32,000 nt of DNA from Candidatus Saccharimonadota bacterium (GTDB taxonomy: Bacteria > Bacteroidota > Bacteroidia > Cytophagales > Amoebophilaceae). The position numbers and the translations under genes were made by a program. The notes under the pieces were generated by a model, which did not search any database, was not told the origin of the DNA, and saw nothing but the letters and a program-made list of their open reading frames with translations. The DNA lies in NCBI RefSeq assembly GCF_964030745.1, contig NZ_OZ034918.1, positions 720,001 through 752,000 on the forward strand. The letters run 5' to 3'. Of this stretch, positions 3 to 18,613 are shown one piece after another. How positions within the stretch are numbered: position 1 is the stretch's first letter; every line of letters starts with the position of its first letter.

Positions 3-974
3 TCAGATAACAAAAGGGGTACTTCACCTCATGTTAGCGCTGGGGGGGAGGCTGTAAATCTTGTAGCATTTTTGCAGAATGTATATAAATGCAGGCATAA
101 CAAGCTAGTAATTACAATAGGTCGTTTTGTGGATACACTTTCAATTATACAAATACACGATTTGTCTGCAGATAGCTCATTGCATAGCGTATCTGGAGAT
201 ACCCCATTCCATATTGCAGCCAGAGTTTGCAATAAAGAGATTTTTGAAGAGCTTCTAAAGAAATTAGAGGGTTTAGCGCTTTCGGCAGGTGTTCACTCAA
301 ATGAAGTGATATATAACGTTTTAAGTATAAAAAATAATGATGGTCTTACTGTGGCTGATGTTGCAAAACAAAATGGTGCTATAGTTATTCTTGAAGTGTG
401 CAAGAAATATGGTGTATCACCAGATATTATACGTATTGCTTGGCAAACTGTTGTCGCGCATCCAGATGTAGTTGAAGATTTAGAGGATATATCTGATAAA
501 GAGCAATGTGATCAATATAAAATGGCTCAAGAGAAGGCTATCAAATTATGCTACGTTGTGTGCGCTACATTAGCTACGCCTCACTCCATAGATAGCCATA
601 TGAATCACTCAACACATAATAGCACATTAGTGGATCAAACTAGATATGCTACACTTGCTACTGCAATCAGCAATAATGATCTAGATACTATTAAAGGATG
701 CTTAAATAATCTTGATGCACAAGAATATATAAATCAAGTCTATGTTAGAAAGCATGGTCAAGCATATGCTCCATTTGAGCTTGCAGTCATAGAGTCTCGA
801 GACAATATTCTCAAATGGTTCTTGAGTTTTCATACGAAAGATTTACCTATTCAATCAGTAGCGATTGCTTATGAATGGGCACTTGCTTTTTCTTGTGAAT
901 ATAAAAAATATGAACGTGTGGCTAATATTTTAGGAAAATTCTTAGCATCTAGTAAATTTCGTATGTCATGGTAG
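3..974 (+). CDS. ankyrin-repeat protein; the 5' end lies outside the window
   Basis: Frame 3 is open from nt 3, with no stop before the listed TTG at 72. It contains ANK-like units: RGTSPHVSAGGEAVNLVAFL, GDTPFHIAARVCNKEIFEELL and NDGLTVADVAKQNGAIVILEV. The stop TAG (972-974) overlaps the ATG (968) of the next ORF. Confidence 0.7.
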   Translation, partial: SDNKRGTSPHVSAGGEAVNLVAFLQNVYKCRHNKLVITIGRFVDTLSIIQIHDLSADSSLHSVSGDTPFHIAARVCNKEIFEELLKKLEGLALSAGVHSNEVIYNVLSIKNNDGLTVADVAKQNGAIVILEVCKKYGVSPDIIRIAWQTVVAHPDVVEDLEDISDKEQCDQYKMAQEKAIKLCYVVCATLATPHSIDSHMNHSTHNSTLVDQTRYATLATAISNNDLDTIKGCLNNLDAQEYINQVYVRKHGQAYAPFELAVIESRDNILKWFLSFHTKDLPIQSVAIAYEWALAFSCEYKKYERVANILGKFLASSKFRMSW

Positions 975-1265: not shown

Positions 1266-2455
1266 TGTAGTAGTTGATATTTAATCTGACATTTATTAAT
1301 TTGTGTTGATATAAATACCGACTACTATTATGAATTTACATCAAAAAATCATCAAGCCGAAAGTAGGCTTATTGGAGCTAGCAAAAACGTTGGGGAACAT
1401 TTCATCGGCGTGTAAAACTATGGGTTATAGTAGAGATAGCTATTATCGCTTCAAAGCCTTGTATGAAACAGGCGGTCAAGAGGCTTTACAAGAGATAAGC
1501 CGTAGGAAGCCGATTATGGCTAATAGAGTAGATCCTAGTATAGAAAAAGCAGTAGTAGATATGGCGATAGATTATCCAGCCTATGGCCAGCTTAGAGTAT
1601 CTAATGAACTAAAGCAACAAGGTATCCTGGTCTCTCCTGGCGGTGTCAGGTCTATCTGGTTACGTAATGACTTAAATAATATAAAAAAACGTCTTAAAGC
1701 CTTAGAAGCTAAAATGGCTCAAGATGGCCTTGTTTTAACGGAATCTCAGCTATCCGCATTAGAAAAACGTAAGCATGAACAAGAAGCATGTGGAGAAATA
1801 GATACAGAACACCCTGGTTATTTAGGCTGTCAAGATACTTATTACGTTGGTAACTTTAAAGGGATAGGTAAGGTTTATACGCAAGTATTTATAGATAGTT
1901 ATTCTCGGGTAGCTCATGCAAAACTCTATACTGATAAGACAGCCTTGACAGCTGCTGATATGTTAAATGATAGAGTATTGCCTTGGTATCAAGAACAAAG
2001 CATACCCCTCTTGCGCATTCTAACAGATCGTGGTACTGAGTATAAAGGTAAAATAGAGCATCATGCCTTTGAGTTGTTTTTAAGCATAGAAGGCATAGAA
2101 CATACTGTTACTAAAGCCTATTCACCGCAAACCAACGGGTTCTGTGAGCGGTTTAATAAAACGATGAAACAGGAATTCTTTGATACAGCTATGCGTAAGA
2201 AGATCTATACAGACCTGGATGTCTTGAAACAAGATTTAGATAGCTGGTTACATTATTATAATCATGAGCGACCACATTCTGGAAAGTACTGTTACGGTAA
2301 AACGCCTATACAAACTTGGGAAGATAGTAAAAAACTAGCCTTTGAAAAAAATAATCAAATCGCGTATCTTAAGAGCATACCTGACAAACTAAACTTAACT
2401 GACATCTATACAGTCTAATTTTTACTGCCTGTCAGATTAAATATCAACTACTACA
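1266..2455 (+). mobile_element. IS481-family insertion sequence, apparently intact
   Basis: Perfect 26-bp terminal inverted repeats TGTAGTAGTTGATATTTAATCTGACA (1266-1291; reverse complement at 2430-2455). A 7-bp direct repeat TATGAGG flanks it (1259-1265 and 2456-2462). It carries a single transposase ORF. Confidence 0.9.
1330..2418 (+). CDS. IS481-family DDE transposase (N-terminal HTH plus rve/integrase core)
   Basis: 362 aa. Integrase-core pattern: [14 protein letters not shown] ... [10 protein letters not shown] ... [20 protein letters not shown]. It sits between the IRs. Confidence 0.9.
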
Positions 2456-3121: not shown

Positions 3122-4885
3122 ATGAACAAGTTACCGATTGGGGTTAGTAACTTTCAGGAGTTAGTAAAAGGGAATTACCTTTTTTGTGATAAAACAGCTA
3201 TGATTTCTGAATTTTTAAACAAAGGAGAGAAGGCTACGTTAATCGCTCGTCCTCGCCGTTGGGGCAAGACACTCAATATGTCTATGTTGCAGCATTTCTT
3301 TGCATCAGAGGTTAGTGGCGTAAGTACAAAAGGTCTATTTGATAATTTAGCGATTAGCAAGTTAGAAGGTGGTAACCACATTGATCAACATCAAGGTAAG
3401 TACCCGGTTATTATGCTAAGTTTTAAGGATGTTAATGCAGATAACTTTGCAGGCGCTTACAACAAAATAAGCAAACAAATATCTTTCCTGTTTAGCTCAT
3501 TTGAGTATTTATTAAAGGGTTCAAAGCTCAATACGGCACAGTTAAAAACTTTTAAAGATATTATTAATCAATCTGCTGACCAACAAGCTTTAGAGGATTC
3601 GATAAAACTCCTTAGTCAATGCCTTTACCAACACCATGGTCAAAAAGTTTATATCCTCATAGATGAATACGACACCCCACTCAACAAAGCTTATGGCAAT
3701 AAAGAACACTTGGATGCGATGGTCGCATTTATGCGTAATCTATTTAGTGCTGCCTTAAAAGATAATGATTATTTAGGAAGAGGTGTTTTAACGGGAATAT
3801 TGCGTGTTTCAAAGGATAGTATGCTATCTGGATTGAATAACCTGAAAACTTATACAATTTTAGATCAAGGCTATAGCAGCCACTTTGGTTTAAGCGAAAT
3901 GGAAGTTCAAGATTTATTTACCAAACAAGATCTTTCTATTTGTATGGATCAAGTAAAAAATTGGTATAATGGCTATAGGGTAGGCAGCTTGGTTATGTAT
4001 AATCCTTGGTCTATTATTTATTGTTTAAGCGAGAAAGGCCTTTTTGATCTCTATTGGGTCAATACGGGTAATAATGATCTAATCAAGCATCTGATTCTTA
4101 GCTCTAATAATAGCATTAAAGAGCAATTTGAAACATTGATGCAAGAGGAAACTTTAAAGGTTGCTGTTGATAAACATCTTGCCTTTGATTTGTTAGGTAC
4201 CAGCGAAAATGCTTTATGGAGTTTGCTTTTATTTGCTGGCTATTTAACTTTTGAAAAAAGTATTTTAAGTAAGCATAGTGATTTATATGATTGCTCAGTT
4301 AAGATTCCTAATAATGAAGTACGCAGGCTCTATAATAGATTTTTTGAAGAATGGTTGCTTAGTAAATTTCCTAGTCAGCATAGGTATGATACTTTTTTGA
4401 ATCATTTACTTTCTGGTAAAATAAATGAATTTACACGAGATTTAAACGCCTATCTCTTACAAAGTGCTAGCTTTTTTGATGTGCATGCTGCTAAACAAGG
4501 CGAAAGCTTTTACCATGGCTTTGTACTAGCTATGCTGGCTAGCATTAGTGACAGATACTATATACGCTCTAATAGGGAAAGTGGCTTTGGCCGTTATGAT
4601 GTGCTATTGATTCCCCAAAAATCATCTAAAGCCATTCTATTGGAATTTAAACATCTACGTAAGGAAGAAGAGCTGGAAAATGTAGCAAAAGTTGCGCTAA
4701 AACAAATCCAAGATCAATCTTACCATACTGAATTATTACACCATCCTCATGTAAATGAAGTAGTAGAAGTGGGCATTGCTTTTTCAGGCAAGTCAGTTGT
4801 ATCGGCTTATTCCACTTATGATTTGATTAGTAAAAAAACTGGTGATATTATTTTTGCAAGTAGCTATCAGCAGGAAGAAGCGTAA
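3122..4885 (+). CDS. predicted AAA-ATPase-like protein with a C-terminal PD-(D/E)XK nuclease-like domain (AAA-ATPase_like + PDDEXK_9 architecture)
   Basis: 587 aa. The N-terminus KLPIGVSNFQELVKGNYLFCDKT...IARPRRWGKTLNMSML and ILIDEYDTP are typical of this family. The C-terminus ESGFGRYDVLLIPQKSSKAILLEFK is a PD-(D/E)XK-like motif. Confidence 0.75.
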   Translation: MNKLPIGVSNFQELVKGNYLFCDKTAMISEFLNKGEKATLIARPRRWGKTLNMSMLQHFFASEVSGVSTKGLFDNLAISKLEGGNHIDQHQGKYPVIMLSFKDVNADNFAGAYNKISKQISFLFSSFEYLLKGSKLNTAQLKTFKDIINQSADQQALEDSIKLLSQCLYQHHGQKVYILIDEYDTPLNKAYGNKEHLDAMVAFMRNLFSAALKDNDYLGRGVLTGILRVSKDSMLSGLNNLKTYTILDQGYSSHFGLSEMEVQDLFTKQDLSICMDQVKNWYNGYRVGSLVMYNPWSIIYCLSEKGLFDLYWVNTGNNDLIKHLILSSNNSIKEQFETLMQEETLKVAVDKHLAFDLLGTSENALWSLLLFAGYLTFEKSILSKHSDLYDCSVKIPNNEVRRLYNRFFEEWLLSKFPSQHRYDTFLNHLLSGKINEFTRDLNAYLLQSASFFDVHAAKQGESFYHGFVLAMLASISDRYYIRSNRESGFGRYDVLLIPQKSSKAILLEFKHLRKEEELENVAKVALKQIQDQSYHTELLHHPHVNEVVEVGIAFSGKSVVSAYSTYDLISKKTGDIIFASSYQQEEA

Positions 4886-5064: not shown

Positions 5065-5910
5065 TTAGGTGGGTATTAGGAATGTTTTTCTTGTAATAAG
5101 GCGTAGATTATGGCTAATAGCACATAGAATAGCATTGAGTTTGTCTCCCAATATTCCTTTCAAGTAGTTAACCGCTAATTTACCATCAGATTTCATATGA
5201 CCAATATGTGGTTCAATAGCAGATCTTCTTTTTAGTGCTTTTTTGAGACTAGGCGTTATACCTCTTTTAGAGCCGCTTATAAATATATTACATTGACTAT
5301 TAGGTATATTATGACCTCTGTAACCCCTGTCTACGAAGACGTGTTTTACCTGAGTACCAGATAGTTTTTCTGCTTGTAATAAACTTCTATGCAAGGTATG
5401 TCCATCATATTCATTAGGATGTAAAGCTTCCGTTGATACAATCAAGCCTTGTTTATGGGTGAGCGTAAATTGCACCTTACAACCATACTCATAGGGATTT
5501 AAAGCCTTACCTTTACTTACGCAGTAAACAGCAGGTTCATGGATACTATAGACTTTATTTTTACTTTTTTTTGATTGGTTAATAATCCTTTTACTTATAG
5601 AAAGCAGATGTCTAAACTGGGTGCGTATTGCTTCATCACACGATTGTATAGAGCGTTCTACATCTCTTACCACCCGACCAAGATAGTTTTTTAATGTTTT
5701 AACGCCTTTGGCTAAACGTTTAAACTGTTTAGCATGTGCATAGCCATCTACTTTACGTTTGATAGCTGGCCCTAGACGTTGGTAGGTTTGACGGAGTTTA
5801 ACGCCTGTTTTCTTAGCTATAGCCACTAGTTTTTGTCTAGCCTTATTAAGCAACGAAGAATCAGTTGGATAGCGAATATTTTTCTCCATTACAGTAGTGT
5901 CGGATATCAC
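5065..5910 (-). CDS. IS5-family transposase, DDE catalytic part (orfB); the -1 frame is open back to nt 5943
   Basis: 281 aa. Contains DTTVMEKNIRYPTDSSLL, VFVDRGYRGH and RRSAIEPHIGHMKSDGKLAVNYLKG (DDE_Tnp_1 pattern). Its frame overlaps the orfA end at the A AAA AAG motif. Confidence 0.8.
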   Translation of the reverse strand: MISDTTVMEKNIRYPTDSSLLNKARQKLVAIAKKTGVKLRQTYQRLGPAIKRKVDGYAHAKQFKRLAKGVKTLKNYLGRVVRDVERSIQSCDEAIRTQFRHLLSISKRIINQSKKSKNKVYSIHEPAVYCVSKGKALNPYEYGCKVQFTLTHKQGLIVSTEALHPNEYDGHTLHRSLLQAEKLSGTQVKHVFVDRGYRGHNIPNSQCNIFISGSKRGITPSLKKALKRRSAIEPHIGHMKSDGKLAVNYLKGILGDKLNAILCAISHNLRLITRKTFLIPT

Positions 5911-5933
5911 TTTTTCAAGTTCTTTTGGGCAGA

Positions 5934-6344
5934 CTACTTTTTTTTAATGGCTAATTGTATAGTCATCGATAAGATCTTATTAAGACCTTCTGCTCCCAAT
6001 CTTTGACGCCAACGAGTTAATGAACTAGGGTGACAAGCTGCCTTAATCTGAAAATAATCATAGCCACAAAGGTATTGCCAATAAGGATTTTCTACCCATC
6101 TAGCAACTACTTGCTCATCAGAAACTTGGTACATATGACTGATAATGAGTAGGCCTACAATCAAACGAATAGGTAAAGGAGGTTGACCGGGTCCATAGCT
6201 AAAGCTGCGGTCTAAATCTGATTCTAAGGATTGCCAAGGAATGGAATCAGCTAACTGAAATAAGGCGTGTTGGGGATTAAGAATCCCAGATAAGCGTTGC
6301 TCAAAAAGCCTACCACAAGAATGATTTATCCTCTTAGATTTCAT
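5934..6344 (-). CDS. IS5-family transposase, N-terminal part (orfA, DUF772/InsH N-terminal-like)
   Basis: 136 aa. PLPIRLIVGLLIISHMYQVSDEQVVARWVENPYWQYLCGYDYF...HPSSLTRWRQRLG is typical of IS5-family transposase N-termini. It ends in ...AIKKK* on an A8 run. Confidence 0.8.
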   Translation of the reverse strand: MKSKRINHSCGRLFEQRLSGILNPQHALFQLADSIPWQSLESDLDRSFSYGPGQPPLPIRLIVGLLIISHMYQVSDEQVVARWVENPYWQYLCGYDYFQIKAACHPSSLTRWRQRLGAEGLNKILSMTIQLAIKKK

Positions 6345-6599: not shown

Positions 6600-9500
6600 T
6601 TAGTGAACACTTCCATTTAAAATCTGATTACATATATTTTCCATTTCTGATAACCAAGTTAAAATATTATTTTTTTGGGACCATGGAATATAAAAGTCCA
6701 TAGTATCTTTGGCTATTCTTTTTTGGTCTTCTAGTTTTCGTGCAGCTATAGTTCTTAGATTGTGAAGTCTATCAGCTAGCTTAATCTGAACGACACGAAT
6801 ATCCTTACACTTATTTAATATATTTTGATTATCAGACTTATCTAGTTTCCATCGCAAACCATAAGTATTATAATGCGTAACCATGTCTACTATATAAGCA
6901 ACTTCCATTCCATATAGTAGTTCTATTTGCTCTAATGTAACGATTGTATCCTCTACTACATCATGTAATAGAGCCGCTAAAATGGTTTCAGCATTCTTTG
7001 TAGCTTCTAATACAATCTTAGCTACCCCCATGGGGTGGGTATAATAAGGATCACCTGACTTACGTATAACATTGCCATGTGCTTGCTTAATAAAGTGAAT
7101 GGTTGCTTTTACCTTTTGTTCAGTTAACGTTGTGTTGCTTACAAGCAGGCTAATAAGCTCTTTTTCTTGGGTTAAACTTGCATCAGTTTCTGCTAACTTA
7201 TTAGATAAGTCATCGGTATGATATCGTTTAAACTGCATAACTTTTTTGCCATCAATAGGTAATATATAGAAACAGGCTAAACCACTTTCTGTTTCTATGG
7301 TTTCTATATATCCTCCATGAGCTTGTACAATTTTTCTACTTTCTTCTTGATATAGATTATTGATGGTCTTAGGTACGAAGTATGAATTAATCTTATCTGT
7401 AATTACATAAGTAGGTGCTATATTGGGATTATCTGTATCTGTGGATATAGAAAAAGCGAGTGCAGGTAATATAGGAGCGCTTAATTGCTTCTCAGAGGTA
7501 CTATATATGGATACCTGGTTAGGCTCAGGAAAAGGGTAAGATAACAATGTGTCTGAAATAGTTAAATAAACGGTATGATCTATGGTATATTTACTCTGGC
7601 ATAGGTTTAAAAAATTTATAGTCAATAATCTTTCAAAGATAGTTGGGTCGGTTAATAAATATTTTTCTTTTGTTTTTTTCGTTAAAAGCAGCTGTATAGG
7701 TATATCTAGTTTCCTAACGGTTTCATAAGATTTTAGGATCAGTTTCTCTATGTCAACTTTATGGATAGATTTGGAATCTAACGTGTACGTATGTTCTTCC
7801 TTAGCTCTTTTTAGTAACGATTGTCTAAATACATATAACTGTTTCTGGTGTTTCTCTATAGGTAGGTTTTTTGCATGTATGCCCAGTTCATCAGCTATAT
7901 CTTGCAACACTTTTCCGCTATAGGTAGGATCTAATCTGTTCCAGTTTTCTTGATTATGTAGAGAAGCTAGCGTATACTGTTGATCGCAGATTCTAGTTAA
8001 CGCTATAGTTTGTAATTGTCTGTTAACTTTATTTCTTAAATATCGATAGACTAGGCAACTAAGTAGAATGGTTAACCCTATCATTGTTTCTGTAGTTATC
8101 CATTCTTTACAACTTACAAGGTCTAAATGAGGCGGTATCCATTTATATATCAATAATACGACAGATAGCATTATTATTGTTATGGTATATGGCAATAATA
8201 GACTACTTATACCTATGTTGATTATAAACATTGCGCAAGCCATAGGTTCAAAATGGCTTAGTTTCATATAGGTGATGCCAGAAATAAAAAGGACTCCATA
8301 TAAAACTATAGGCCACAATCCATGCAACAGACTATTACCTTCCTGTTTATAAGCATGAAGTGTAGGATAGATGGTTATTACTGTTCCTATAGCCATGACA
8401 GATATATACCAGTATATGTAAGGAAATAGATATACTTGCTTCACATAGAAAAGTAGTATGGCGTTGTAAACAATAAAATAAATACCTGACGCTATGAAAG
8501 TAGTAGCGCTTTTAGGAAATATATCTTTCCAGTAAGAAATAGTAAAAATTGATTGAAAATAGTATAATTTTCTTAACCACCAACGTTTGGTTTCTTGGTT
8601 TTGTAGTTTTACTGGACTATCATCTGGAATCCCCACCCAACCCGTATTTGGCTTTTTAGGTAGCAGGTAATGAAGGATCAATAAAATGGACGCACCATAT
8701 ATAAGGGATAGAAATACATCTCGTTCTCTTATAGGTTGTCCTTTTATAAAGATATGGTAAACTGTCATAGCCGTGTTAATTCCCATCGACCATAAGACAG
8801 CAGCTGAACGAGGTCTAAATCCAAAGCAAGCCATAATCATTGGAACTGTAACCGAAGGCGTATAGAAATAAAATACTTTATTTAAAAATTGTCTAATATT
8901 ACTCATGTGTAATGTGATCAGAATGGTAGCTATACCTATTAAACCAGAGGATATTCGTACAACTCTTAGAGAATATTTATCAGTTCGTTCTCTAGAACCG
9001 GTTATGAAAGGCCATATATCATTAGCAAATAACACAGAACCTGTATGTAAATAAGAATCAACTGTAGAAATACATAAAGCAATAATAGATGTTATAAGCA
9101 ACCCTTTGATTCCAGGAAAATGATTAAGCTGCATAATATAGTCTAGTATTTTTTGTTTAGGTGGAATACTATTGCCACTCGTGTATAAAGCAGCAATAAC
9201 AACTAAAAATAGAAGTGAAAAAACGATCCGAATTGTACCACTCTTGAAAAATACTTTGGTTGCTTGTTGAATAGAAGAAGACATATAAAAACGCTGAATT
9301 TGCGCTGGATCAAAAGTAAATATGGAATGCCAAATGAAATAAGTAAACAGATGAACTAAGGAGTTATCCCATGTAGGAGAGATATCCCAAGTAGCTACTT
9401 GGGATAAATTAAACTGTGACATATTGACAAATTTTTGCCAGTTAATCCATTGGTTTTTAGAATTATATAACAAAGTAAAAGTTAGAATAGGCAAACAAAC

Positions 9501-10067
9501 ACTGAAAAAACAAAATTGATAAACATCTGTTAGCGCTACAGACCTGGCCCCACCTAAAATAGTGTAAGCCGTAACTAGTAGGCCCAAAATAACTGTATAG
9601 TAATTAGAATATGCTGGTGCATTACAAGAAGTAATAGATTCAATAATAATTAAACTAATCTTAAACTGAGCAGAAACTTTAGCTATCGTTACTACAATAC
9701 CAAATATAGCTGTAAGAATTCGCACTGATCTCCCACATAGCCTACCCATAGATTCAGCAATGGAATAATCTCCTAGCCACTCTTTCATTCTAACAATAAT
9801 GAACCGAGAGGCTAAATAAAATCTAAGTGGACTACCTAGACTTAGTATTAACATATATAATCCTTGATAGTAATAACCAGTTAGTTGAGTATGTAAAAAA
9901 TTCCCTCCATATATGGTAGCTATTAAAGAGATAGTAACTACCCAAGTGGACATATTTCTACTGCCAACTGCATAGTCTTTAAATGTAGTAACTGACTTAC
10001 TACAGTATAATCCTATTGCCAGTGTAGTGACTAAGAATATTATTATGATCAATAGGTCGATATCCAT
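6600..10067 (-). CDS. multidomain membrane protein: sodium:solute symporter (SSS/SLC5)-like domain + ~6 extra TM helices + histidine-kinase-ATPase-like region + RelA/SpoT-type HD (alarmone hydrolase) domain
   Basis: 1155 aa, one uninterrupted ORF. The N-terminal ~480 aa are polytopic and SSS-like (TTFKDYAVG, GGARSVALTDVYQF). The C-terminal 165 aa (nt ~6603-7097) match the RSH hydrolase domain: RKSGDPYYTHPMGVA, AALLHDVVEDT (HD codons at 6960-6965) and VQIKLADRLHNLRT. No synthetase domain follows. Confidence 0.8.
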   Translation of the reverse strand: MDIDLLIIIIFLVTTLAIGLYCSKSVTTFKDYAVGSRNMSTWVVTISLIATIYGGNFLHTQLTGYYYQGLYMLILSLGSPLRFYLASRFIIVRMKEWLGDYSIAESMGRLCGRSVRILTAIFGIVVTIAKVSAQFKISLIIIESITSCNAPAYSNYYTVILGLLVTAYTILGGARSVALTDVYQFCFFSVCLPILTFTLLYNSKNQWINWQKFVNMSQFNLSQVATWDISPTWDNSLVHLFTYFIWHSIFTFDPAQIQRFYMSSSIQQATKVFFKSGTIRIVFSLLFLVVIAALYTSGNSIPPKQKILDYIMQLNHFPGIKGLLITSIIALCISTVDSYLHTGSVLFANDIWPFITGSRERTDKYSLRVVRISSGLIGIATILITLHMSNIRQFLNKVFYFYTPSVTVPMIMACFGFRPRSAAVLWSMGINTAMTVYHIFIKGQPIRERDVFLSLIYGASILLILHYLLPKKPNTGWVGIPDDSPVKLQNQETKRWWLRKLYYFQSIFTISYWKDIFPKSATTFIASGIYFIVYNAILLFYVKQVYLFPYIYWYISVMAIGTVITIYPTLHAYKQEGNSLLHGLWPIVLYGVLFISGITYMKLSHFEPMACAMFIINIGISSLLLPYTITIIMLSVVLLIYKWIPPHLDLVSCKEWITTETMIGLTILLSCLVYRYLRNKVNRQLQTIALTRICDQQYTLASLHNQENWNRLDPTYSGKVLQDIADELGIHAKNLPIEKHQKQLYVFRQSLLKRAKEEHTYTLDSKSIHKVDIEKLILKSYETVRKLDIPIQLLLTKKTKEKYLLTDPTIFERLLTINFLNLCQSKYTIDHTVYLTISDTLLSYPFPEPNQVSIYSTSEKQLSAPILPALAFSISTDTDNPNIAPTYVITDKINSYFVPKTINNLYQEESRKIVQAHGGYIETIETESGLACFYILPIDGKKVMQFKRYHTDDLSNKLAETDASLTQEKELISLLVSNTTLTEQKVKATIHFIKQAHGNVIRKSGDPYYTHPMGVAKIVLEATKNAETILAALLHDVVEDTIVTLEQIELLYGMEVAYIVDMVTHYNTYGLRWKLDKSDNQNILNKCKDIRVVQIKLADRLHNLRTIAARKLEDQKRIAKDTMDFYIPWSQKNNILTWLSEMENICNQILNGSVH

Positions 10068-10208: not shown

Positions 10209-10943
10209 GTGGATAATAGTCAGATTAAAAAAATCCTATTTGCTATGTTTCGTTTATTTATACTTTTTTATCTATGTCTTGTTTCTTGCAGCTGTATAAC
10301 GAATAAACCTAATAGAAAATCAATTCCTAGCCAAGCACAGTTAGAATATGATTCAACAGTGTGTAGTTACGACAGTAGCACTATACTTGCAAGAAGATTA
10401 AAAAATAATCTAAAGGCCAGTGTTGGTGTTTTGCTTTGTTATACTAATGACAAACAAGAAAGTTTTGTCTTATTAGGTAGAGAACGAGTAGGTAAACGTG
10501 ATGGGGCAACATGGTGTGAATTAGGTGGAAGTGTAGAAACAGGTGAAAGTTTTTTAGAAGCTGCTATTCGCGAATCAAAAGAGGAAAGTGGAGGCGTATA
10601 TCAATTGGATCCAAATGATTTATTGAATAATGGAGTGGTTTGTTATAATAAATATAAACAAAAGGATGGGCGTATTAGAGAAGAAGTATATATTTTACTG
10701 AATATAAATAATTATTATCCTTCTGATGTATTATGTAAAGCAGTCAATCGGCAAAATAAGGATACTTATAGGGAGAAAGATGACTTCAAATGGGTTTCAT
10801 GCACTAGTTTATGCACAATCGATCACAATCCTTGTATATTAACAGATATAGATGGTAATGAGCATACGTTTACGCTAAGAAAGTTTTTCTATGAAGCATT
10901 GAAAAGAGATTCATTTCGAATGAAATTATTATATGTAATGTAG
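10209..10943 (+). CDS. NUDIX hydrolase with an N-terminal lipoprotein-type signal peptide
   Basis: NUDIX box GSVETGESFLEAAIRESKEESGG fits Gx5Ex7REUxEExG. The N-terminus MFRLFILFYLCLVSCSC has an L-V-S-C lipobox. The listed start is GTG 10209; an alternative ATG is at 10245. Confidence 0.75.
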   Translation: MDNSQIKKILFAMFRLFILFYLCLVSCSCITNKPNRKSIPSQAQLEYDSTVCSYDSSTILARRLKNNLKASVGVLLCYTNDKQESFVLLGRERVGKRDGATWCELGGSVETGESFLEAAIRESKEESGGVYQLDPNDLLNNGVVCYNKYKQKDGRIREEVYILLNINNYYPSDVLCKAVNRQNKDTYREKDDFKWVSCTSLCTIDHNPCILTDIDGNEHTFTLRKFFYEALKRDSFRMKLLYVM

Positions 10944-11077: not shown

Positions 11078-11512
11078 ATGAAAGACTATACTTTACAAGT
11101 AACAGCTAGAGCGCTAATAGTAAAAAATAGGCAATTACTACTTGTTAGTAATGATTATAAGCTTTGGTATACACCTGGCGGGCATTTAGAACCAAGTGAA
11201 ACGCTTCCAGCGTGCATGGTAAGAGAAGTAAAAGAAGAAACTGGACTTGATGTTAAACCAAACCAAATTGTCCATGTTGCAGAATTTTTTGATAAAAAGT
11301 ATAATGCACATAAGATAGAGGTCTATTTTTCCGCAGAAATAGATGTAAATGAGCTGCCTAAAAATTGGTCAGATAAAGATGGTCCAGTTACAACCTCTCA
11401 ATTTTTTGATGTTGAAGCCTTAAAAGATATCCATGTTGTACCAGCCTTTTTAAAAACAGGTAAATGGTCAAATTTTGATCTTGATGTTTATCAAGGATCA
11501 GAAAAGAGATAA
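11078..11512 (+). CDS. NUDIX hydrolase (cytoplasmic, MutT-like size)
   Basis: 144 aa. NUDIX box GHLEPSETLPACMVREVKEETGL is a perfect fit to Gx5Ex7REUxEExGU. Confidence 0.85.
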   Translation: MKDYTLQVTARALIVKNRQLLLVSNDYKLWYTPGGHLEPSETLPACMVREVKEETGLDVKPNQIVHVAEFFDKKYNAHKIEVYFSAEIDVNELPKNWSDKDGPVTTSQFFDVEALKDIHVVPAFLKTGKWSNFDLDVYQGSEKR

Positions 11513-15061: not shown

Positions 15062-18000
15062 CTAACTGCTTGTATCCCTTTTGTTATTTTTTTCGATACT
15101 GTTTCCTACCTTCAGAGCCTTTTTAGCTGCTACTTCTAATACTGTGGCTATCTCTGGGCCTAAGTACGTATTGGCCAGTTTCACATCTATAGCCAATGTT
15201 TCTTGTGCCATATGTTGCACCTCTGTTGGATGGATATAACCTGCTGCATGGCGTAGGTCATAGAGCCGTTCTGCCAGTTTAATAAATAGAACAGAAAGCT
15301 GTATATGTTCTTCCTTGATCGCTTCTTTCAGTCGATTCTGCACATATAGCAAAGAAGGATGGTCTAGCGATTGCCGTTTATCGATCCCTACCACATTCAA
15401 GACAAAAGCATAGACGCCTAAGTTATAATGTTCCTTGACATAAGAAAGCGGTAAACAGGTACGACGCACCAGTTCATACAACAAAGCAGCATAGATTACT
15501 TTAGGAGAGTGAAAAGCCCACTCTACTACCAATTCAGCAATCCCTACCGCCCGCACATAAAACAATTGACCAGAAGCATGTCGTTTAAAACCAAAATGTT
15601 GCCTCAGCAATAAAAGCAATCCAGAAATAGTGCCCACATCCACAGGATCCATCTGATAAGAGAACTTGCAAACATAGTCATGGAACTTCATGAGTACCAT
15701 CATCGAATCGGCTTGCTCCTTAGGGGTGGCGGGTGCTTCTAAGGTTAAGGCATCTAGAGGGAGTGTAGTAGTCATCCTACCTAGGATATCTGTGACATCA
15801 TTAGGCAATACCAACAGCATCGAGGGGTGCTTTTTTCCACCCAACGTTTCCCAATAGCCATAATGGGCACCAACAATACTGGATAAGGTTTCCTGTTGCA
15901 AGTCTATAGAGGGTGGTGTTTCTGGTTTACCTTGAGGGTCGATCGCATCTATGGCATCGCCATAGGTCTGCTTCACTTTAGGTAGTGTTTCAGGAGCAGC
16001 AGTAGCCTGGCTGATTACCAAAGCCGTAGCTTGAAAAAGAATGCATACAGGTTGGCTGCCATCAACAGGATCGGCTAGCTTAAACTGCAAAGCAGTCGAA
16101 TGGAGTTGTATCCGCACAACGGGTCTAACCGCCTCCTGTAGCTTACCGACACGTAAAACAGCCTTAACCAATAAGTAGACTACTTGATGGATATCACATA
16201 CCATATAAGGGGATGCCCCCCCATTGGCACTAGTTATGGTTTCTACCAGTAGTCTAGGTGGATCAGTCACCTCTTGCGACAAGGCCAACTCTACCTTACG
16301 TATTAACTTATCTAATGTGATCTGCGTAGGTTGCAACAGTGCATGCTTTTTAGCTTTAGCCCTTCTATTGAAGTAGGCCGCCCAATCGTAGAGCTTATTG
16401 ATAATACTTTGAAAGTCCTGTTTATAAAGCGGAATATTGCTATCTAAAAAAGAAATAGATTCCTCAATCTTACCTATTACCTCCGTTAGAATGGCACCAT
16501 ACCCTTTGGCCTTACCAACCGTAGGCCCTGCAGCTGCATCATAAAGAGAGGCTTTGAGTTGCTGGGATTTTCTTATTTTTTCATGATTTTCAAGGTAAAG
16601 AATTTTATTTATGTAAATATTTTGGTTGACTTTAAACCAAATAATAATCGCAACGATTAATAGGCTCACCACAAATAGTGGCAACAAGGTACACAACATG
16701 GGCAGCGTAAATCCCACGGAAATAGGATAAAGCGCCAGTAGTAATGTACCAGTTACAACCCCTATACCCAGATAGAGGGGAAAGAGCGATAAGATTACCG
16801 CACAATGGGCCAACGACAAGGATGTGGTAAAGACCGGGTCTACCAGGTTCCACCAGTGCTCAAGTAGATTTACAGGGAGGTAAACCGCTAGTCCTATTAG
16901 CCAACACACACCCATGCACCAAGCTGGAATGGTTTTGCTAAAAAAGGTTTTAGAAGAGGTAAAAAGCGCCCCCACAAGGACTTGACAAATCGCCCAATAG
17001 ATGTGATCGGGCCTAATAAACCAATAATCTAGAATAGCAGTAGCGACCATATATAGACCTATTAAGCGTATGGTACGATCACTGGGCATCAGTTTGAGTA
17101 AAATAGCTTTTTTATTGGTCCAGCCATTTTTAATAGCTTCTTTTCGTTCCACACGTTTGCGTCTATGAGCTTGTTGGAGTTGTTTAAACTGGTAATCCGG
17201 ATCCATCCACCCCGTGTCTTTAGGTTGTTTAAATAAATGGTGGGCTGCCATCATAGCTAGGCCATTTGCTACCATAGCAGGGAAAGAGCCATCCATACCT
17301 GTTGAAGGTTTAACCCATTTGTTCCAAGCTACAATAGCCAGTCCACCTGTTGCCATACCGACTAAAGCAGTACGAGTAGTCCCTCGAAAACCAAAAGCAG
17401 CTAAGATAAAAGGAGCTGTTACGATAGGTATAGAGCAGTTAAGGGACCAATACAGTAATTTTAACAGGTCTTGATTTTTAAAAGCTAACAGCATAGCCAA
17501 TAGACCCACCACTAATGTAGCCCGTCTAGCTATTTTAAGTTGATAGCCATCTGTAATTTCTTTTCCTTTTTGTAGACTTTTCACGATATCATGGCCAACC
17601 ATAACAGAGCAAGCATTTAAGCAAGAATCAGCTGTGGACATTGCCATAGCCAGCAAACTAATGGTCACAAATCCTTTAAAAAAAGGAGGGATGTGGTTCA
17701 TTATATATTCCAAAATTGCTTCCTTCGGTAAATCTGGTGCTTTTACAAAAACAAATAGACTTATTAAAGTGATAAAAGAAGTTATAACAAGGCTAAAAAG
17801 AGTAGCATATGAAAAAACTTTCTGAGCCTGAATAGGGCCAGAAGCCATATACACCCGTTGCATAGTGTGTGGACTTACTCGAGATGTTAAAGCACTTAAC
17901 ACACGCAACAATAGCGCTATGAGTATGGTATAGCCATGGAGTAGACTACTAAATTGAAATTTAGTATGGCCTTGTAGCATAGGAATAATGGTTGCAGCTG

Positions 18001-18613
18001 GCTTGTCTGCTTTTGCAAACATACACCAAGCTAAAAGGGGAATAATAATGGAAAAGGTTAGAAACTGCAATACATCTGTAAAGGTAACGGCACGAATACC
18101 TCCAAAAGTGGAATAGAAGATCAGGAGTAAGCTTGCAAGGGCAGTGATTACATAGGGATTAGTCAATACCAGACAAATTTCAATGGCCTTGCTCATTACA
18201 ATCATTTGGCTAGTAATGATAACGATACAACTACATATACTAACCAAAGCAGTAAGAATCCGTGGATAGATACCATACACACTACCTATTGTTTCAGCTA
18301 TAGAGAGGTGTTGCATAAATGGCCCCATACGCAATGCTAATCTACCAATGAACCAATTACCAAAACAATTTAAAAGTATAACAATGATCCAAAATAAGCC
18401 AAGTTCATAAATACACTCTACATTACGTATTAAGCCTCCTCCACCATAATCAGTAGCCAATACTGTAGCAACTAGGGTGGCGGTAGCAAATTGTTTATTC
18501 CCCACTGCATATTCCCGAAAGGTGGTTTTTTTTCTACTAAAGTAAATACCTACCACCAGCGTTAAGGATAAAAAAGCGGCTACTATAAATAAGGCCATAC
18601 TGAAGTAGATCAT
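15062..18613 (-). CDS. paralogue of 6600-10067: SSS-like domain + extra TMs + kinase-like region + degenerate (predicted inactive) HD domain
   Basis: 1183 aa with the same architecture and alignable termini (TTFREYAVG vs TTFKDYAVG). In the HD region AALLYELVRRT replaces AALLHDVVEDT (YE codons at 15473-15478), FYVRAVGIA replaces YYTHPMGVA, and IKLAERLYDLRH replaces IKLADRLHNLRT. Confidence 0.75.
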   Translation of the reverse strand: MIYFSMALFIVAAFLSLTLVVGIYFSRKKTTFREYAVGNKQFATATLVATVLATDYGGGGLIRNVECIYELGLFWIIVILLNCFGNWFIGRLALRMGPFMQHLSIAETIGSVYGIYPRILTALVSICSCIVIITSQMIVMSKAIEICLVLTNPYVITALASLLLIFYSTFGGIRAVTFTDVLQFLTFSIIIPLLAWCMFAKADKPAATIIPMLQGHTKFQFSSLLHGYTILIALLLRVLSALTSRVSPHTMQRVYMASGPIQAQKVFSYATLFSLVITSFITLISLFVFVKAPDLPKEAILEYIMNHIPPFFKGFVTISLLAMAMSTADSCLNACSVMVGHDIVKSLQKGKEITDGYQLKIARRATLVVGLLAMLLAFKNQDLLKLLYWSLNCSIPIVTAPFILAAFGFRGTTRTALVGMATGGLAIVAWNKWVKPSTGMDGSFPAMVANGLAMMAAHHLFKQPKDTGWMDPDYQFKQLQQAHRRKRVERKEAIKNGWTNKKAILLKLMPSDRTIRLIGLYMVATAILDYWFIRPDHIYWAICQVLVGALFTSSKTFFSKTIPAWCMGVCWLIGLAVYLPVNLLEHWWNLVDPVFTTSLSLAHCAVILSLFPLYLGIGVVTGTLLLALYPISVGFTLPMLCTLLPLFVVSLLIVAIIIWFKVNQNIYINKILYLENHEKIRKSQQLKASLYDAAAGPTVGKAKGYGAILTEVIGKIEESISFLDSNIPLYKQDFQSIINKLYDWAAYFNRRAKAKKHALLQPTQITLDKLIRKVELALSQEVTDPPRLLVETITSANGGASPYMVCDIHQVVYLLVKAVLRVGKLQEAVRPVVRIQLHSTALQFKLADPVDGSQPVCILFQATALVISQATAAPETLPKVKQTYGDAIDAIDPQGKPETPPSIDLQQETLSSIVGAHYGYWETLGGKKHPSMLLVLPNDVTDILGRMTTTLPLDALTLEAPATPKEQADSMMVLMKFHDYVCKFSYQMDPVDVGTISGLLLLLRQHFGFKRHASGQLFYVRAVGIAELVVEWAFHSPKVIYAALLYELVRRTCLPLSYVKEHYNLGVYAFVLNVVGIDKRQSLDHPSLLYVQNRLKEAIKEEHIQLSVLFIKLAERLYDLRHAAGYIHPTEVQHMAQETLAIDVKLANTYLGPEIATVLEVAAKKALKVGNSIEKNNKRDTSS

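Follow-up and report, generated by a model that had tools for sequence, protein, structure and literature searches.

A transporter-like membrane protein with a kinase-derived middle region and a C-terminal RSH-type hydrolase domain in the Amoebophilaceae

What function is served by joining, in a single polypeptide, a domain of the sodium:solute symporter family (SSF) to a domain of the kind that destroys the alarmone (p)ppGpp is the question raised by a gene in a 32,000-nucleotide stretch of DNA (hereafter referred to as the window) from an intracellular symbiont of the family Amoebophilaceae (NCBI RefSeq assembly GCF_964030745.1, contig NZ_OZ034918.1, positions 720,001 to 752,000, listed as Candidatus Saccharimonadota bacterium). 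In the ORF (open reading frame) listing of the window the gene is one unbroken frame of 1155 amino acids at 6600..10067 on the reverse strand. It is referred to here as paralog A, and residue numbers are those of paralog A unless otherwise stated, catalytic residues being given also in the numbering of Rel-Seq. A first reading made from the letters of the DNA (the sequence-only reading) had taken the gene for a one-off 'transceptor' that couples the availability of a solute to alarmone hydrolysis. Our answer, held with moderate confidence, is that paralog A is a solute-gated membrane receptor-enzyme with (p)ppGpp hydrolysis as its output. The protein belongs to a large family of paralogs that has already been catalogued, with 13 full-length copies in one genome of C. 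hertigii, and is thus not the solitary case that it had seemed.

Domain organisation of paralog A

The modules of paralog A were delimited by profile searches, structural comparison and a full-length AlphaFold2 model built from 45 family sequences (mean predicted local distance difference test score (pLDDT) 79.4, predicted template modelling score 0.68). The regions that resemble the dimerisation and histidine phosphotransfer (DHp) and the catalytic and ATP-binding (CA) domains of histidine kinases are called DHp-like and CA-like, RSH denotes the RelA/SpoT homologues, and dN/dS is the ratio of nonsynonymous to synonymous substitution rates.

6600..10067, reverse strand: paralog A, whole gene; SSF domain, six transmembrane helices, DHp-like and CA-like regions and RSH-type HD hydrolase domain (ORF, Pfam, NCBIfam, AlphaFold2, orthologue dN/dS)
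8658..10067, reverse strand: SSF/SLC5-type transporter-like domain, residues 1-470 (Pfam SSF, Foldseek match to SiaT 5nv9)
8025..8657, reverse strand: Lys/Arg-rich, putatively cytoplasmic loop (conserved motif 'HYLLPKKPNTGWVGIPDD', amphipathic helix) and second, six-helix membrane domain, residues 471-681 (AlphaFold2 helices)
7773..8024, reverse strand: DHp-like helical hairpin without the phospho-acceptor His, residues 682-765 (model helices, Foldseek)
7233..7772, reverse strand: CA-like domain of HATPase_c fold without G1 and G2 boxes, residues 766-945 (Foldseek, family profile, hhalign)
7113..7232, reverse strand: linker that joins the CA-like domain to the HD domain, residues 946-985 (low-confidence tether and conserved 'AETxxSL...' helix)
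6603..7112, reverse strand: RSH-type HD (HD_4) domain, putative pyrophosphohydrolase with a complete catalytic set, residues 986-1155 (Pfam, alignment to 1vj7, Foldseek)

The C-terminal domain is matched by Pfam HD_4 (PF13328) over residues 991-1131 with 88.8 bits against a cut-off of 27.2 (E 4e-25), and by the NCBIfam model spoT_relA (TIGR00691) over model positions 4-150 of 687 only, with 135.8 bits against a cut-off of 499.2. Since the latter match is confined to positions 4-150, only the hydrolase part of a long RSH protein is present. The absence of a (p)ppGpp synthetase noted in the sequence-only reading agrees with the profile searches, in which the RelA_SpoT synthetase (PF04607), TGS and ACT domains gave no match in paralog A, either with Pfam at E<=1 or with NCBIfam. 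Among PDB sequences, Rel-Seq (1vj7) gives the best match, through its hydrolase domain (E 3.7e-29). Paralog A has the motifs RKSGDPYYTHP, HDVVED and KLADRLHN, which align to R44, K45, S46, Y50, H53, H77, D78, E81, D82, D144, N148 and T151 of Rel-Seq, the equivalent pairs (paralog A/Rel-Seq) including R1002/R44, H1011/H53, H1035-D1036/H77-D78, E1039-D1040/E81-D82, D1099/D144 and N1103/N148. In Rel-Seq the Mn2+ ion is held by H53, H77, D78 and D144, and E81 and D82 form a dyad.

The domain superposes on the hydrolase folds of Rel and SpoT (1vj7, Acinetobacter baumannii SpoT 7qpr and Thermus thermophilus Rel 6s2v) with a root-mean-square deviation of about 3 A over some 190-200 columns at 34% identity. 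As the sequence-only reading had it, no catalytic residue is missing, but its wording 'almost residue for residue' overstates a likeness of about 34% to the solved Rel and SpoT structures. Match scores are highest with long Rel/SpoT proteins (E about 1e-27 to 1e-29); then come Mesh1-type enzymes (1e-11 to 1e-13) and, last, a (p)ppApp hydrolase (7e-4). A homology search with the HD domain alone listed short proteins and fragments, the nearest outsiders being generic Rel HD domains at 40-47% identity. The domain is likely to be catalytically active, (p)ppGpp being its putative substrate.

The region between the membrane domains and the HD domain is a kinase-derived DHp-CA fold in which the kinase is dead. 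The models place the helices of the DHp-like hairpin at residues 659-709, 714-729 and 737-759. When residues 655-962 were modelled separately (pLDDT 76.8) and compared with the PDB using Foldseek, all of the top 50 matches were histidine-kinase DHp-CA modules (E 3e-9 to 2e-7), including ZraS, RetS, HK853, CckA, DivL and phytochrome kinase-related domains. These matches bear out the degenerate ATPase fold suspected earlier at nucleotides 7230-7655 or thereabouts, its extent being now 7233-7772; the DHp-like hairpin that precedes it had gone unremarked in the sequence-only reading. At the sequence level the family profile matches the catalytic domain of ZraS (E 0.0012), and hhalign, set to compare the profile of the family with that of its kinase-bearing relatives, aligns the two colinearly across 249 columns (E 1.9e-4).

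The retained DHp-CA fold, together with the pairing by hhalign of the near-invariant N818 with the N-box Asn, might be taken to mean that the middle region has kept histidine-kinase activity of an unusual kind, in which case the protein would signal by phosphotransfer and the HD domain would be an accessory. Such a kinase would, however, have to work without its usual residues, and we give the idea very little credence. Neither HisKA nor HATPase_c gave a Pfam match in paralog A at E<=1. An H-box His was not found, the aligned position being Pro or variable with no conserved His across the family, and 'NWNRLDPTYSG' of paralog A aligns where the kinase relatives have 'FxRNxSHExxxPMxG'. In direct alignment with those relatives the G1 box (DxGxGIP; glycines of DxGxG) and the G2 box (GGRGxGL; glycines of GxGxG) are absent, and the final CA strand 'AHGGY' is retained. 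The N-box assignment itself shifts with the method of alignment, as MAFFT does not pair N818 with the N-box Asn.

The N-terminal module had been read from the sequence as an SSF/SLC5-like input domain, and this is upheld by a full-length Pfam SSF match (PF00474, 49.7 bits with the cut-off at 22.8; residues 32-428, equivalent to positions 1-403 of the 406 in the profile) and by a LeuT-type SSF fold, the Foldseek match to the sialic-acid symporter SiaT (5nv9) having E 4.8e-11 and a target TM-score of 0.82, with further matches to CHT1, SGLT1/2, NIS and vSGLT. The superfamily model TIGR00813 also matches paralog A (E 1.6e-17), under its own cut-off. Polar membrane residues at T180-D181, Q258-R259, S334-T335-x-D337-S338 and D350 are invariant across the family. 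By motif, we take S334-T335, D181 and D337-S338 to correspond to S340/T341 and D187 of PutP and to the Na2 and Na3 ion sites of SiaT. A phmmer search of the PDB with the membrane domain alone gave no match even at E<=10 and hence no residue-level alignment with SiaT, so that this mapping of ion sites is one by motif.

Beyond the SSF core the AlphaFold2 model has a charged cytoplasmic helix (484-506) and six extra hydrophobic helices (521-539, 551-569, 579-603, 608-624, 627-643 and 659 onward), in keeping with the roughly six further transmembrane helices counted in the sequence-only reading. The sixth runs unbroken into a long cytoplasmic helix (659-709). Since the number of extra helices is even, the C-terminal part and the post-SSF loop share one side of the membrane. 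That side is probably the cytoplasm, to judge from the Lys/Arg-rich flanks and from the topology of PutP. Within the motif of the post-SSF loop H466, G476 and W477 are invariant in the family, and this motif and the second membrane domain are common to the kinase-bearing relatives and to the unfused Rickettsiaceae protein described below.

Kinase-bearing and unfused relatives in the Rickettsiales

The farthest homologues of paralog A are proteins of about 920-970 amino acids that carry the same SSF domain, post-SSF motif and second membrane domain, followed by HisKA and HATPase_c domains with intact H-box, G1 and G2 boxes. They are labelled 'Na+/proline symporter/signal transduction histidine kinase' at the Joint Genome Institute and are common in Rickettsiales-type genomes. 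These Rickettsiales proteins, of which P0066, P0068, P0069 and P0070 are examples, are 25-30% identical to paralog A and colinear with it through the SSF domain, the motif 'HYLLxQPGGWVGIKD', the second membrane domain and the DHp-CA region. Compared with them, paralog A has lost the phospho-acceptor His and the G1/G2 glycines of the ATP lid, and has gained a tail after the CA-like domain (post-CA tail) and an RSH hydrolase output. Because these colinear relatives carry intact HisKA and HATPase_c domains, the membrane module is regarded here as a signalling input. SLC5/SSF sensor kinases of the CbrA/CrbS type likewise use an N-terminal SSF domain as input to a cytoplasmic signalling module. CbrA consists of SLC5, STAC, PAS and kinase regions; in paralog A Pfam detected neither PAS nor any other additional domain, and the six-helix membrane domain is present instead.

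A second class of relatives, of about 980-1014 amino acids and with SSF as the sole Pfam match, was found in metagenome-assembled genomes (MAGs) of Rickettsiaceae, in Ca. Tisiphia and in Rickettsia endosymbionts. One locus of this class (L003) came from a scan of a genome collection with the family alignment; the other matches listed were ordinary Rel HD domains, and none of those listed was from Cardinium or Amoebophilus. The unfused protein at this locus is colinear with residues 3-980 of paralog A, including the His-less kinase-like region and the post-CA tail, and ends where the HD domain would start. It overlaps tail-to-tail by 12 nucleotides with a gene for a stand-alone HD_4 protein of 193 amino acids, which is 41% identical to the fused HD domain and has all the catalytic motifs. 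The loci compared are as follows.

L003, 9983..13546: Rickettsiaceae MAG; kinase-dead; convergent HD_4 neighbour, 12-nucleotide overlap
L084, 605..4301: ENA metagenome; kinase-dead; convergent HD_4 neighbour
L091-L093 (L091, 4001..7591): ENA metagenomes; kinase-dead; convergent, overlapping HD_4 neighbour
L090, 3022..6846: Rickettsia endosymbiont; kinase-dead; HD_4 gene 123 bp downstream in the same orientation, with TraD and DUF1016 genes alongside
L089: Ca. Tisiphia; kinase-dead; no HD_4 neighbour, a gene of leucine-rich-repeat (LRR) type being there
L083, L085 and L086: various sources; intact kinase; no HD_4 neighbour

An HD_4 gene is thus adjacent at four of the five diverged kinase-dead loci and at none of the three with an intact kinase; in three of the HD-positive lineages the two genes converge and overlap. 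The downstream gene of 217 amino acids at L089 was considered as a diverged HD domain and rejected, since its product is of LRR type and does not resemble HD proteins; L089 is therefore counted among the loci without an HD neighbour. The membrane proteins of L089 and L090 share 81% identity. The membrane proteins of the four HD-positive loci are mutually 36-45% identical, L003 and L084 having no detectable nucleotide similarity, and the adjacency of sensor and HD_4 gene is a conserved neighbourhood. The stand-alone HD proteins are 37-45% identical to the fused domain with every catalytic motif kept. The post-CA tail is present in unfused and fused forms and missing from the true kinases; in the unfused membrane proteins the end is a short tail with a weak Pfam match to HTH_Rpn_C. 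These observations form a coherent pattern in which the dead kinase is paired with an RSH hydrolase, as a neighbouring gene in the Rickettsiaceae and as a fused domain in the Amoebophilaceae.

For a rickettsial mobile element, the Rickettsiales amplified genetic element (RAGE), the cargo is said to include histidine-kinase proteins along with hydrolases and synthetases of the stringent response (PMC4316617). The context of L090 fits this description, and the histidine kinases of RAGE may be the kinase-dead SSF protein.

Such surroundings also bear on whether the HD domain acts on a substrate other than (p)ppGpp, such as (p)ppApp, alarmones made by toxins (in immunity or detoxification), NADPH, or an imported host nucleotide, perhaps delivered by the SSF domain. 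Small alarmone hydrolases neutralise toxic synthetases (PMC7229694), and RelA/SpoT-like toxin domains occur in polymorphic toxins (PMC3482391). In a further study (PMC9765508), an orphan bacterial small alarmone hydrolase is characterised as metabolically promiscuous and Mesh1 is reported to act on NADPH. The stand-alone HD partners are found in mobile-element contexts (TraD and DUF1016 genes at L090; RAGE cargo, PMC4316617), and two NUDIX nucleotide hydrolase genes flank paralog A. Against this, the HD domain is nearest to long Rel/SpoT proteins in sequence and in fold, far above the Mesh1-type and (p)ppApp hydrolases, no synthetase-toxin gene lies beside any locus examined, and a role in immunity would leave the transporter-like sensor and the kinase-derived relay unexplained. 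A different substrate is, in our judgement, improbable.

The paralog family in Cardinium and Amoebophilus

The close homologues of paralog A are all from Candidatus Cardinium and other Amoebophilaceae, and homologues such as Aasi_1009 exist in Amoebophilus asiaticus. The nearest database protein is 89% identical, so that the window appears to stem from a strain of the insect symbiont Cardinium that is missing from the protein collection searched. When 1.84 billion cluster representatives were searched exhaustively, with the cytoplasmic half as the query, 91 clusters came up at E<=1e-30; among the cluster matches listed, about 36 are proteins of 1100-1245 amino acids with the CA-like and HD domains together at the C-terminus. 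The named matches are from Amoebophilaceae or Bacteroidota MAGs, apart from one in a eukaryote proteome set. The latter (P0266, 1110 amino acids, 'eukprot') is a full-length member, which presumably stems from an unrecognised Amoebophilaceae-like symbiont or a contaminant of protist data.

The catalytic set is complete in 41 of the 45 aligned members, whose overall identity spans 22-89%. The whole gene has dN/dS values of 0.19-0.28 against orthologues at 89%, 83% and 66% protein identity, and the individual modules, the dead-kinase region included, have values of 0.08-0.37 (0.21-0.24 for the HD domain against the three orthologues). All modules are under purifying selection. The mean pairwise identities of the modules are given below.

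The 41 catalytically intact members: SSF 46%, second membrane domain 47%, DHp-like 40%, CA-like 47%, HD 63%
The 13 paralogs of one genome: SSF 66%, second membrane domain 75%, DHp-like 75%, CA-like 84%, HD 85%

Across the paralogs the HD domain is the best-conserved module and the SSF domain is among the most diverged, as would be expected of receptors with differing ligands and a shared enzymatic output. Faster evolution of the membrane domains or gene conversion of the 3' halves could add to this pattern of identities. Comparison of paralog A with the orthologue at 66% identity (L001, 10001..13438) is similarly uneven, with 56-58% for the SSF and second membrane domains and 74-83% for the CA-like and HD domains, which suggests either that the input half evolves faster or that paralogs have exchanged their 3' halves by recombination or gene conversion.

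Some members depart from the full architecture. Two Cardinium proteins (P0053 and P0054) are about 965 amino acids long and have no HD domain. On one contig of a Cardinium sp., P0010 (990 amino acids) and P0073 (212 amino acids) jointly span the whole architecture with an overlap at about residues 944-993, and look like one member split by a frameshift or by true fission.

High copy number, the occurrence of fragments and possibly split copies (such as P0010 with P0073), the 81 symporter/HD fragments counted and listed among elements resembling MITEs (miniature transposable elements with inverted repeats) in one study (PMC12039267), and the transposase genes that flank paralog A would also be compatible with a selfish or decaying repeat family whose members have no specific cellular role. 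Such decay is hard to reconcile with a frame that is intact over 1155 codons, with conserved catalytic residues and with the low dN/dS of each module against three orthologues. In addition, all 12 'putative sodium-solute symporters' of the Cardinium strain cEper1 are expressed, two of them among the top genes (PMC5698495). We consider this explanation highly improbable. In Amoebophilus, 19 such genes are regulated over the infection cycle (PMC8831229).

The conservation of the modules is also the evidence with which a role in plain transport has to be weighed, namely that the protein is mainly a nutrient importer, as it is annotated at present, and that the HD domain binds or consumes (p)ppGpp so as to match uptake to growth, the signal running from alarmone to transporter. 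The SSF core is complete and its invariant polar residues are retained also in members whose HD domain is dead or missing. The genome papers assume uptake of host nutrients (PMC8831229, PMC5698495), and the symbiont is a metabolic parasite, with a TLC ATP/ADP translocase encoded in the same window. However, true sensor kinases among the relatives have this very membrane module as their input. A regulator that merely bound its ligand would not need the full catalytic set, which 41 of 45 members keep; the HD domain is the best-conserved module, and the stand-alone HD enzymes beside the unfused forms retain all catalytic motifs. An importer of this kind appears unlikely to us, though not far-fetched.

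The receptor-enzyme hypothesis and its setting

How a solute-gated receptor-enzyme might work can be outlined as follows. The SSF domain would bind, and perhaps also transport, a host-derived solute together with Na+. The resulting conformational change would cross the second, six-helix membrane domain and reach the continuous helix with the DHp-like hairpin, whose helices, by analogy with kinases, probably form a dimeric four-helix bundle. The CA-like domain would no longer handle ATP and would act as a scaffold, the dead DHp and CA regions together serving as a module for dimerisation and relay, and the activity or the accessibility of the C-terminal (p)ppGpp hydrolase would be altered as a result. 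With many paralogs of divergent input and common output, several host metabolites could be integrated into one alarmone level, and an alarmone pool made by a canonical Rel could be tuned to host supply. That (p)ppGpp is the substrate, that a solute controls its hydrolysis and in which direction, and that the protein dimerises, we infer from the evidence above. As for the 'transceptor' proposed earlier, the relatives with a true kinase behind the same input, the kinase-dead loci with an adjacent RSH gene, the 41 complete catalytic sets among 45 members and purifying selection all speak in its favour, while the function as such stays a deduction.

In a wider and more tentative form, which we hold to be possible though somewhat less probable than not, the family would be an unrecognised class of transducers in the Amoebophilaceae, split into two genes in some Rickettsiaceae, in which transporter-like receptors destroy (p)ppGpp by way of a pseudo-kinase relay. 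Some 7-19 receptors with different ligands would then set the balance of growth and dormancy without phosphotransfer, and the dead members would be alarmone-binding or modulatory.

Several observations weigh against the receptor-enzyme. The adjacency counts are small (Fisher p = 0.14). P0053, P0054 and P0010 lack the HD domain, and paralog B (a second family member in the window), P0067, P0065 and P0019 have a dead one, and hydrolysis is therefore not the sole function of the family. The conserved ion-site-like residues of the SSF domain fit plain transport equally well. The substrate of an HD_4 domain cannot be read from its sequence, and the metazoan homologue Mesh1 is reported to hydrolyse NADPH (PMC9765508). 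The tether between the CA-like and HD domains is modelled with low confidence (pLDDT <50 at residues 945-954), so that a rigid allosteric path is only presumed. Finally, the synthetase that would supply Cardinium with alarmone is suggested by an annotation name in a supplementary table.

The source of the alarmone is clearer in Amoebophilus, for which one Rel[HS] and 14 'rickSpo' hydrolases have been counted (PMC3153485). For Cardinium, the supplement of Brown et al. (PMC6232779) lists an orthogroup named relA (CarP1452) in the core of three strains and again among the groups shared with the core of free-living outgroup Bacteroidetes; the adjoining 'Sodium/proline symporter' group is missing from the quoted passage of the outgroup-shared list. 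A canonical Rel in Cardinium is suggested by this annotation name alone. P0072, the only long RSH found in the first search, was considered as the Rel of the symbiont and rejected, as the gene does not translate under table 11 and probably uses another genetic code.

Paralog B and the other features of the window that have a bearing on the locus are listed below.

15062..18613, reverse strand: paralog B, second family member, 1183 amino acids, SSF domain, dead-kinase region and dead HD domain (Pfam SSF; HD_4, E 4e-9)
10209..10943 and 11078..11512, forward strand: two NUDIX hydrolase genes, divergent from paralog A across a 141-bp gap
5065..6344, reverse strand: DUF772/DDE_Tnp_1 transposase split into two ORFs, directly downstream of paralog A
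28398..29432, reverse strand: intact transposase of 344 amino acids, of the same DUF772/DDE_Tnp_1 type
1330..2418, forward strand: rve-type integrase
3122..4885, forward strand: protein of 587 amino acids with AAA-ATPase_like (PF09820) and PDDEXK_9 (PF08011) domains

Paralog B is 23% identical to paralog A and carries substitutions at the catalytic positions (in Rel-Seq numbering R44 to H, H53 to R, the HD pair to YE, the ED dyad to RR, D144 to E and N148 to D). Its counterpart in C. hertigii, P0067, has nearly the same degenerate pattern, and between the two the dead HD domain is the best-conserved part (62%, against 52% overall). They constitute a conserved pseudo-hydrolase lineage, and paralog B may bind the nucleotide or serve as a modulatory partner.

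The NUDIX genes, which gave only weak, sub-threshold NCBIfam matches (NudI, MutT and YtkD types), were considered as dedicated partners of paralog A and rejected. The divergent NUDIX neighbour is kept only at the close orthologues L087 and L088 and is absent at the 66% orthologue L001, and hence reflects local synteny rather than a component of the system; they might act in the turnover of nucleotides or alarmones, but nothing supports this. The pair of PF09820 and PF08011 is the one described for the DUF1703 family, which the same study counts among the expanded MITE-like families of Cardinium (PMC12039267). Genes for host interaction or parasitism were observed at 26452..28266 (forward strand), 29700..31253 (reverse strand) and 72..974 (forward strand); they include a protein of 604 amino acids with a C-terminus of the IpgD virulence family (E 5.7e-7), the TLC ATP/ADP translocase (E 5e-133) and an ankyrin-repeat protein. 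A scan for sigma-70 promoters and terminators gave fewer sites than shuffled sequences, sigma-70 not being the promoter type of the Bacteroidota.

Compared with known systems, paralog A is a combination of known kinds (SLC5-type sensors, RSH hydrolases and pseudo-kinase scaffolds) and is not categorically new. It shares with long RSH proteins (Rel/SpoT) the HD fold and all metal-binding and catalytic residues, but has no synthetase, TGS or ACT domain. Its HD domain is C-terminal on a polytopic membrane protein, not N-terminal in a ribosome-associated soluble enzyme, and the would-be regulatory partner is a dead kinase module in place of the synthetase and C-terminal domains. The small alarmone hydrolases, including rickSpo of Rickettsiales and Amoebophilus (Atkinson et al. 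2011), are, like paralog A, hydrolase-only RSH proteins; they are single-domain proteins of about 200 amino acids, whereas paralog A has 1155 and four other modules. The 14 rickSpo proteins of Amoebophilus (PMC3153485) plausibly belong to the same family as paralog A. RetS, DivL and the plant phytochrome kinase-related domain, which are among the top structural matches, keep the DHp-CA fold as a signalling scaffold without canonical kinase chemistry. Scaffolds of the RetS/DivL type act through other kinases or response regulators, while that of paralog A is covalently joined to a nucleotide hydrolase.

Members of the family appear in the databases as 'sodium:solute symporter family protein', as 'HD domain-containing protein' and, wrongly, as 'bifunctional (p)ppGpp synthase/hydrolase'. 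In papers on genomes and transcriptomes they figure as symporters whose substrate is unknown (PMC3486910, PMC5698495, PMC8831229), with copy numbers of 12 to 19 in the literature. The RSH classification counts the HD domains of Amoebophilus as small alarmone hydrolases, with no occurrence of 'symporter' or 'transmembrane' in its text (PMC3153485), and the combination is named once in passing as 'spoT ... /sodium glucose cotransporter' (PMC6232779). In the literature searched, neither the dead-kinase relay nor a link with true SSF kinases was described, and no account was given of a mechanism or of sensor and hydrolase as separate genes in the Rickettsiaceae.

The control of (p)ppGpp hydrolysis is far less understood than that of its synthesis, and the known hydrolases are either domains of ribosome-associated Rel/SpoT proteins or small soluble proteins. 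Ligand-gated membrane hydrolases, if they are what this family encodes, would represent a new wiring of nutrient sensing to the stringent response. A functional pairing with the kinase-dead SSF protein is predicted for the 'SpoT' hydrolase genes that have proliferated in Rickettsia, where they are mobile-element cargo without an explained role. Several percent of each Cardinium and Amoebophilus genome, now labelled 'putative sodium/solute symporter, function unknown', would be relabelled, and a concrete handle would be provided on host sensing by those obligate intracellular symbionts that interfere with the reproduction of arthropods.

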